Origin: Escherichia coli
GTDB taxonomy: Bacteria; Pseudomonadota; Gammaproteobacteria; Enterobacterales; Enterobacteriaceae
Direction: 5' to 3' (one strand)
NCBI RefSeq assembly: GCF_003334255.1
Contig: NZ_QOWU01000236.1
DNA length: 458 nt
Position numbers and translations under genes: made by a program. Under the pieces are notes generated by a model that saw only the letters and a program-made list of their open reading frames with translations, searched no databases and was not told the DNA's origin. Positions 1-458 of the stretch are shown piece by piece (the first letter of the stretch is position 1; each line of letters begins with the position of its first letter).

Positions 1-458
1 CTTCCCAGCTGGCTGTCAGGTTTTGGTGTACCAAACGGCATGTTCTCCTGGTAAATCTGCGCCCCCATGAAGTTTTCGTTCATGGCAAGATTCGCAAACG
101 GACGCAGAATTGTCGGTGCTGCATTTTTCAGCAATGCCCCGGACAGCGTTTCCGACGTCTCACTGCCAATCGGGCTGAATGCCCCCAGGATACCACCGAC
201 AACATTACCGGCAGCACGGGACGCCGTCAGGTCACCAGCAGCCACACCTTCAGAGGTATGCCCGAGCAGGAAGAAAACGTTGTACCCGTAAGGCAGAGGA
301 ATACTCCAGTACTCTCCGGCCCTGCCCCCGAACATCGATTTCATAATGACGAGGTTACGCTCTTTCACATGATACGGCACCTTGTCGTACCAGTTAACCC
401 CGTCATCATCCTCACCCGCCACACTGCGGTTAAGCGAGCCAAGCAGATAACCCGCTCC
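1..458 (-). CDS. Internal fragment of a protein-coding gene (5' and 3' ends both outside the window); hypothetical protein of unassigned function
   Basis: Reverse-complement translation from + position 458 gives 152 sense codons with no stop (codons occupy + 458..3, plus 2 nt of the next codon at + 2..1): GAGYLLGSLNRSVAGEDDDGVNWYDKVPYHVKERNLVIMKSMFGGRAGEYWSIPLPYGYNVFFLLGHTSEGVAAGDLTASRAAGNVVGGILGAFSPIGSETSETLSGALLKNAAPTILRPFANLAMNENFMGAQIYQENMPFGTPKPDSQLG. Third positions are mostly C/G/T with few A-ending codons, and common enterobacterial codons dominate (CTG, GCG, CCG, AAC, GAC, GGT, TTC, TAC). Amino-acid composition is balanced and protein-like. The other two minus frames stop within about 30 codons (TGA and TAA), and + frames 1 and 2 contain several stops. 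The in-register + frame 3 is open but uses rare codons (CGG, CGA, AGG, AGA, ATA) and encodes a Cys/Arg/His-rich peptide, as expected of an antisense strand. No internal ATG has a convincing Shine-Dalgarno, so the true start is probably beyond + position 458. Function was not assigned because no search could be run. Confidence 0.8.

Follow-up and report, generated by a model that had tools for sequence, protein, structure and literature searches.

The window analysed here is a whole stretch of 458 nucleotides of Escherichia coli DNA, and its minus strand is open from end to end, with a translation that matches the peptide quoted in the first-pass annotation. It lies inside a single gene (L001:4669-13020) for WP_000331660.1, a protein of 2783 residues. 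All 458 bases are identical (100%) to L001:12001-12458, to phage PhiR5_2 and to a prophage gene of 26 complete E. coli genomes, which include the O104:H4 outbreak lineage, while identity to the Stx-converting podoviruses P13374, TL-2011c, VT2-Sakai and Stx2-converting phage I is 94-96%. The protein belongs with those of the 933W/phi24B-like podoviruses of the Stx type. In RefSeq it carries the name 'LPD38 domain-containing protein'; the sequence is already annotated as a member of a described family, and there is nothing new in the finding as first stated.

Comparison with two diverged copies bears on the reading frame. Against VT2-Sakai, 15 of 20 substitutions fall on the third codon position of the minus frame and 14 of 19 codon changes are synonymous; against E. 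coli AR-0427 the counts are 23 of 29 and 20 of 26. Because the substitutions are mostly third-position and synonymous in both comparisons, we take the minus frame to be expressed and under purifying selection. Two plus-strand open reading frames, at 67-291 (74 codons) and 179-346 (55 codons), are probably antisense by-products rather than genes, as the third-position pattern fits the minus frame.

The gene closes the late region and shares its strand with the upstream genes; its neighbours are annotated as hypothetical. Upstream in the same late region are genes for an Ail/Lom-family outer-membrane protein and a Hok/Gef toxin (L001:296-1408), cargo of the moron type. The end of the O104:H4 prophage (L001:13421-16967) adjoins ynfF, and beside it only 84 bp are left of a gene for a 4Fe-4S protein (probably ynfG), which suggests that the prophage integrated into that gene. 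The giant gene occurs twice in these O104:H4 genomes, presumably once in this prophage and once in the Stx2 phage, and in PhiR5_2 ibrA and ibrB lie downstream (L002:9784-11597).

Pfam places LPD5 at residues 1047-1190, LPD1 at ~1351-1430, MuF_C at ~1740-1829 and LPD38 at 2466-2671. A CLCA_X-like region at 1172-1427 scores under its curated cut-off, and this sub-threshold match, far upstream of the window's aromatic-rich block, was the only one in an NCBIfam scan. Two HExxH motifs, putatively of the zinc-peptidase type, occur at residues 1274-1278 (HEWFH, L001:8488-8502) and 1541-1545 (HEIIH, L001:9289-9303), the first of them in the LPD5/CLCA_X-like region. To judge from its sequence, the protein combines several unrelated domains, a putative metallopeptidase among them, which is the architecture described for polyvalent proteins (Iyer et al., 2017; PMC5512222). 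Metallopeptidase activity has been attributed to the MuF-C domain in a phi24B preprint (10.64898/2026.04.10.717836), whereas Iyer et al. (PMC5512222) describe MuF-C as an RNase-like (PBECR) domain. We also considered kinship with the DarB antirestriction protein of phage P1 and rejected it, as three Pfam scans covering residues 1-2783 gave no methylase or helicase domain. A Gly/Ala-rich stretch at residues 406-433 (L001:5884-5967) gave weak, non-significant glycine-zipper Pfam matches (E 1-2), and residues 150-450 are common to about seven to nine relatives.

Table 1. Features of the window, ordered by window position.
Feature	Protein residues	Window positions	Strand	Basis
Coding sequence, part of a 2783-residue giant virion-type protein	2445-2596	3..458	-	Identity to L001:12001-12458
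Part of the Pfam LPD38 (PF18857) match		3..395	-	Pfam scan, E 6.5e-46
Conserved loop N-E-N-F-x-G-x-x-I-Y-x-E-N-x-P-F-G	2571-2587	30..80	-	Alignment; no regular secondary structure in model
Second predicted small-residue helix, ending in the G-[SA]-F-S-P motif	2523-2538	177..224	-	Model helix 644-659
Predicted helix spanning the proposed boundary 2509/2510	2503-2517	240..284	-	Model helix 624-638; second model 77-90
Aromatic-rich block: predicted loop, short helix, beta-hairpin, Pro/aromatic turn and first two turns of a helix	2464-2509	264..401	-	Alignment and AlphaFold
Near-invariant motif P-L-P-Y-G-Y-N-x-F	2498-2506	273..299	-	129-sequence alignment
Predicted beta-hairpin, strands 2479-2483 and 2493-2498, length-variable tip 2486-2489	2479-2498	297..356	-	Both models; indels
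Conserved acidic loop G-E-D-D-D-G	2459-2464	399..416	-	129-sequence alignment
C-terminal part of a predicted Ala/Gly-rich hydrophobic helix	2435-2458	417..458	-	AlphaFold model helix 556-579

Composition and conservation of the aromatic block

The first-pass annotation had described an aromatic-rich block at codons 20-65 of the minus strand, preceded by an acidic EDDD run and followed by a sharp switch to small residues. As a description this is accurate: the peptide and its position are correct (the quoted string has 47 residues and runs one codon further, to 66), the acidic run lies within the G-E-D-D-D-G loop, and F, W and Y make up 10 of the 46 residues of the block against 6.7% across all 2783. 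The block ties for the most aromatic 46-residue window of the protein, and only 0.4% of such windows match its count. The switch is also real, since residues 2510-2554 hold 26 G, A, S or T in 45, the protein's maximum, so that its most aromatic and its most small-residue-rich windows adjoin each other. When the whole protein was shuffled 2000 times, however, 21% of the shuffles contained a window of at least 10 aromatics and 4.5% a window of at least 26 small residues. Composition alone is therefore weak evidence, and the aromatic enrichment is non-significant for a protein of this length.

LPD38, the large polyvalent protein-associated domain 38, was described by Iyer, Burroughs, Anand, de Souza and Aravind (2017; PMC5512222), who found it only in phages. 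The match here covers nearly the entire Pfam model (positions 2-189 of 189; i-E 6.5e-46, 157 bits), and WP_000331660.1 is itself a large phage protein, with its 2783 residues encoded in a prophage and in phages. PHROGs returned families without known function and a 'DarB-like' family; as the latter covers residues 2344-2671 only, we read it as reflecting the shared LPD38 region and nothing more. The papers on PhiXacm4-11 and PhiGT1 hold no content on the LPD38-type giant protein family.

A search with residues 2420-2700 against 1.84 billion cluster representatives (E ≤ 1e-3) found 5568 relatives, counted as representatives at 50% clustering. The best 150 of these are mostly proteins of 1000-5000 residues in which the match lies ~80-90 residues from the C-terminus. 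For conservation we aligned 128 relatives (34-73% identity) over the last 484 residues, so that motif counts refer to 129 sequences. The alignment passes the check on homologues proposed in the first-pass annotation, with seven of ten aromatic positions kept in the 128 relatives: W2467 (aromatic in 96%), Y2468 (100%), Y2494 (98%), W2495 (69%), Y2501 (99%), Y2503 (100%) and F2506 (95%). The other three, Y2473, F2487 and F2507, are not conserved. At residues 2473-2474 (window 369-374, minus strand) the query reads Y-H against a family consensus of D-Y; the family aromatic thus stands at 2474, where the query has His, and the other Stx phages VT2-Sakai and AR-0427 have Ser at 2473. By these residues, the aromatic appears to have shifted by one position in the query lineage.

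The turn motif is close to invariant, with P2498 in 128 of the 129 sequences, P2500 in all 129, Y2501 in 127, G2502 in 125, Y2503 in 122, N2504 in 126 and F2506 in 122. Conservation is not confined to aromatics: K2470, P2472, K/R2476, E2477, R2478, N2479 and M2483 are also kept within the block, and N2454 and R2455 in the helix before it. Over the last 484 residues, column entropy is lowest at ~2460-2510 and at 2350-2415; within the LPD38 region no sequence island is better conserved than the block, which ranks among the two best in the aligned part.

The junction and the predicted fold of the C-terminal module

What the block had been taken to mean fared less well. It was first read as a folded aromatic core or binding surface that meets, near codons 65-66 (residues 2509/2510), either a linker or a helical region, and this implied a domain boundary. 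The conserved aromatic element, folded with good confidence in the models, and the predicted helical nature of the segment after it were upheld; the boundary and the linker were not. We predicted structure with AlphaFold2 for residues 1880-2783 (904 residues, from a 41-sequence alignment; mean pLDDT 83.8, pTM 0.80) and with AlphaFold for residues 2429-2783 alone (355 residues; pLDDT 81.6, pTM 0.63), and the two models agree on the secondary-structure elements. The predicted order is helix 2435-2458, acidic loop, helix 2473-2478, strands 2479-2483 and 2493-2498, PLPYG turn, and helices 2503-2517 and 2523-2538, with pLDDT of 81-90 over the block in the 904-residue model. In such a structure the acidic loop, the short helix, the two-stranded hairpin and the Pro/aromatic turn would lead straight into a helix, and hairpin and turn would be followed by a pair of small-residue helices, all within one fold.

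A boundary at 2509/2510, with a folded aromatic domain or binding surface on one side and a flexible linker rich in Gly and Ala on the other, would account for the real compositional switch, for the adjacency of the two extreme windows, for the greater variability of residues 2512-2535 (entropy ~2.5-2.7) and for the lower confidence at 2520-2550 (pLDDT 62-79 in the 904-residue model). We nevertheless regard it as very improbable. The first-pass annotation would have counted the boundary as refuted by a structure prediction that lacks one close to codons 65-66, and the models lack one there. A single Pfam model spans both sides, with the junction at about model position 44 of 189, and in both predictions one helix crosses it (2503-2517; 2505-2518 in the 355-residue model), with pLDDT of 81-87 in the blocks of that helix in the larger model. 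None of the 128 aligned relatives has an indel at 2509/2510, the nearest length-variable sites being the hairpin tip inside the block (2486-2489) and 2421-2428 upstream, and none of 131 relatives lacks either part.

Conservation, moreover, continues past the junction, which argues against a linker. G2510 is 96% conserved in the 128 relatives, and the G-[SA]-F-S-P motif at the end of the second helix is retained (G2536 in 110 of 129 sequences, S or A at 2537 in 128, F2538 in 126, P2540 in 129), so that G2510, G2536, F2538 and P2540 are conserved at 85-100%. The segment varies in sequence, yet small residues are kept at 2519, 2533, 2536 and 2537. The two predicted helices, 2503-2517 and 2523-2538, are the helical region that the first reading had offered as its other option. 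Their confidence (residues 2503-2538) falls to pLDDT 60-73 when they are modelled without the rest of the module, which suggests that they depend on it; the prediction is less certain for this part. On the models, the change from aromatic to small residues is a change of packing element within one fold, inside a helix, and we infer that the conserved aromatics and the small residues at G2510, G2519, 2533, 2536 and 2537 form complementary packing surfaces of one hydrophobic core.

The fold in question is considerably larger than LPD38. All 131 large relatives are colinear over ~1880-2783; no part upstream of it aligns in as many as 50 of them. This stretch (protein residues 1880-2783) corresponds to L001:10306-13017, and the window lies inside it. 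Foldseek against BFVD, a set of predicted viral structures, showed that C-terminal pieces of many giant proteins from phages share this fold, with superpositions of more than 900 columns and TM scores of 0.88 (40% identity) and 0.65-0.69 (13-16% identity). A protein of phage PTXU04 is among these matches, and the remaining parts of others are annotated as RelA/SpoT, lytic transglycosylase or methylase. Since colinear alignment and shared fold both extend over ~900 residues, the Pfam model (~190 residues) captures only the most conserved fifth of the module. The block, according to the model, is seated within this single, mostly alpha-helical C-terminal module of ~900 residues.

Solved structures gave no relative of the module: with the module model, Foldseek against the PDB reached a best E of 0.41 with TM of 0.10 or below, and PDB sequence searches (with residues 1835-2783 and with a 41-sequence profile) returned only chance or low-complexity helical matches at variable upstream columns. 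Among cultured phages, tblastn found the module in Stx, Vibrio, Ruegeria, Ralstonia (GP4-like) and Burkholderia (Bcep22-like) phages, and the module-bearing phage genomes among the matches listed are ~53-68 kb. On one metagenomic contig (L005:198-3017) a 939-residue protein is little more than the module; its gene begins 3 bases past an upstream open reading frame that is cut by the contig end, and it could be a stand-alone module or part of a split giant gene.

A proposed virion role for the module and its alternatives

Published work on homologues points to the virion. The phi24B protein gp47 is abundant in virions by mass spectrometry and invisible in cryo-EM reconstructions, and the authors propose it as an ejection protein (10.64898/2026.04.10.717836). 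JC1 gp69 is virion-associated and has LPD38 at 4195-4401 of its 4515 residues (PMC9144972), and knock-down of the LPD38 protein of PTXU04 impairs efficient infection (10.1101/2023.09.18.558157). We propose that the C-terminal module would act as an invariant 'chassis' for incorporation into the capsid, expulsion with the DNA, or both, and that the variable N-terminal effector domains (here LPD5 with its HExxH, LPD1 and MuF-C) would be its cargo. This role is favoured on the view that an invariant function should reside in the invariant part, and it is probably the correct one, given the conservation pattern, the proteomics published for virions of phages with homologues and the finding that one distant homologue is essential. 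Taken as a whole, a block within one LPD38 fold, a junction inside a helix and a module that packages or ejects the protein is the explanation we consider best and likely to hold.

The ejection proposal invites a different view of the small-residue helices, namely that after ejection the Ala/Gly-rich helices 2435-2458, 2503-2517 and 2523-2538 insert into the host membrane as a DNA conduit, with the block as an interfacial aromatic belt. The phi24B authors do propose that gp47 forms or contributes to a trans-periplasmic conduit (10.64898/2026.04.10.717836), the small-residue spacing of the helices resembles glycine-zipper packing, and only one 19-residue window of the protein is more hydrophobic than residues 2439-2457. 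Even so, helix 2435-2458 reaches a hydropathy of 1.22, under the transmembrane threshold of 1.6, and in a simple Kyte-Doolittle test (19-residue windows) no window of the protein attains that value. With a whole-protein maximum of 1.38, no membrane-spanning segment of the kind sought in podovirus ejection proteins was found. Across the family, helix 2435-2458 attains 1.6 in only 15% of relatives and the pair at 2503-2538 in 1%; the family median for the candidate helices is 0.8-1.3, and at the median they carry one or two charged residues. On grounds of hydropathy and charge we give the transmembrane reading little weight; the module is also predicted as one compact fold of the soluble type (pTM 0.80), and Foldseek matches to transporters were non-significant (E 0.4 or more). 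Membrane insertion is, in our estimate, unlikely.

More room is left for the idea that the conserved residues of the block do something beyond filling a core. Ahead of it, the loop [G/D/E]-[E/D]-D-[D/E]-D-G is a candidate metal site, possible on the strength of its sequence pattern: D2461 is present in 127 of 129 sequences and D2463 in 128, positions 3, 5 and 6 of DxDxDG are conserved at 98%, 99% and 84%, and the exact DxDxDG calcium-loop pattern occurs in 34 of the 129, the query departing from it at position 1 only, where it has Gly. That first position (2459) is Asp in 34 and Glu in 11 sequences (D or E in 45 of 129), but Gly in 64%, which weakens the case for metal. On a broader reading D2461, D2463, K2470, K2476, E2477, R2478, N2479, Y2501, Y2503 and N2504 would form a metal- or ligand-binding site, a catalytic site or a protein-protein interface (e.g. 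with the portal), and not only a core. The near-invariance of polar residues (D, K, E, R, N) at 34-73% identity argues for it, as does their place in an island that ranks among the two most conserved of the last 484 residues; on the other hand, structural turns too are typically built of conserved aromatics with Pro and Gly, and no Pfam, NCBIfam, PDB-sequence or fold match leads to an enzyme or binding family. We hold this reading to be a tentative one, with the odds against it. In the same speculative vein, and with a similarly small chance of being right, residues 2459-2510 might be the functional heart of the ~900-residue fold, a metal-dependent or portal/DNA-binding site for loading or firing a giant effector-carrying protein. 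If so, such a site would be needed by all podoviruses of the phi24B, GP4 and Bcep22 types and by thousands of metagenomic relatives.

The wider interest lies with the module. Nothing else stays constant across this very large family of phage giants (5568 clusters at 50% identity), and the questions it raises are its function and the fold of its 900 residues, where the block ranks among the two best-conserved islands. Stx-converting phages are drivers of EHEC emergence, and the phi24B preprint (10.64898/2026.04.10.717836) raises the matter of how a 2800-residue virion protein of these phages is packed and expelled. Residues D2461, D2463, K2470, K2476-N2479 and P2498-F2506 are targets for mutagenesis.

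Comparison with known phage proteins

As in other members of PF18857, LPD38 here is found close to the C-terminal end of a phage giant, and the block makes up the first ~44 positions of the Pfam model. The conserved unit is far larger in the present case (~900 residues, 1880-2783), and conservation extends upstream of the Pfam start to N2454, R2455, D2461 and D2463.

The closest named relatives are the orthologues phi24B gp47 (2811 residues) and those of 933W, VT2-Sakai (orf71) and P13374, with ~96% DNA and 97% protein identity over the region, the same LPD5-LPD1-MuF_C-LPD38 layout and the same position at the end of the late region. The copy in the window comes from a related prophage (E. coli O104:H4) and phage PhiR5_2, and differs from this group by five or six amino acids within the window, Y2473S included. 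Bcep22 gp75, JC1 gp69 and the 'DarB-like antirestriction' giants of GP4-like Ralstonia phages, virion-associated proteins of ~60-kb podoviruses, share the C-terminal LPD38 module at 24-26% identity (tblastn), and PHROG 10089 matches query residues 2344-2671. They have N-terminal methylase, helicase and lytic transglycosylase domains of their own, which are absent here, and the 'DarB-like' name refers to those N-terminal parts, not to LPD38.

Other podoviruses offer parallels of role. The internal virion proteins gp14, gp15 and gp16 of T7 and gp7, gp16 and gp20 of P22 leave the capsid at infection, as proposed for phi24B gp47; they gave no sequence or fold match to WP_000331660.1, and they are several small proteins, in contrast to one giant multidomain chain without a segment of transmembrane grade. 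The virion RNA polymerase of coliphage N4 was absent among the PDB and BFVD matches and has no detected similarity in sequence or fold, so that the analogy is one of function only: the N4 enzyme, several thousand residues long, travels inside a T=9 podovirus capsid and is ejected together with the DNA, and its terminal domains serve encapsidation and ejection, not the enzymatic cargo.
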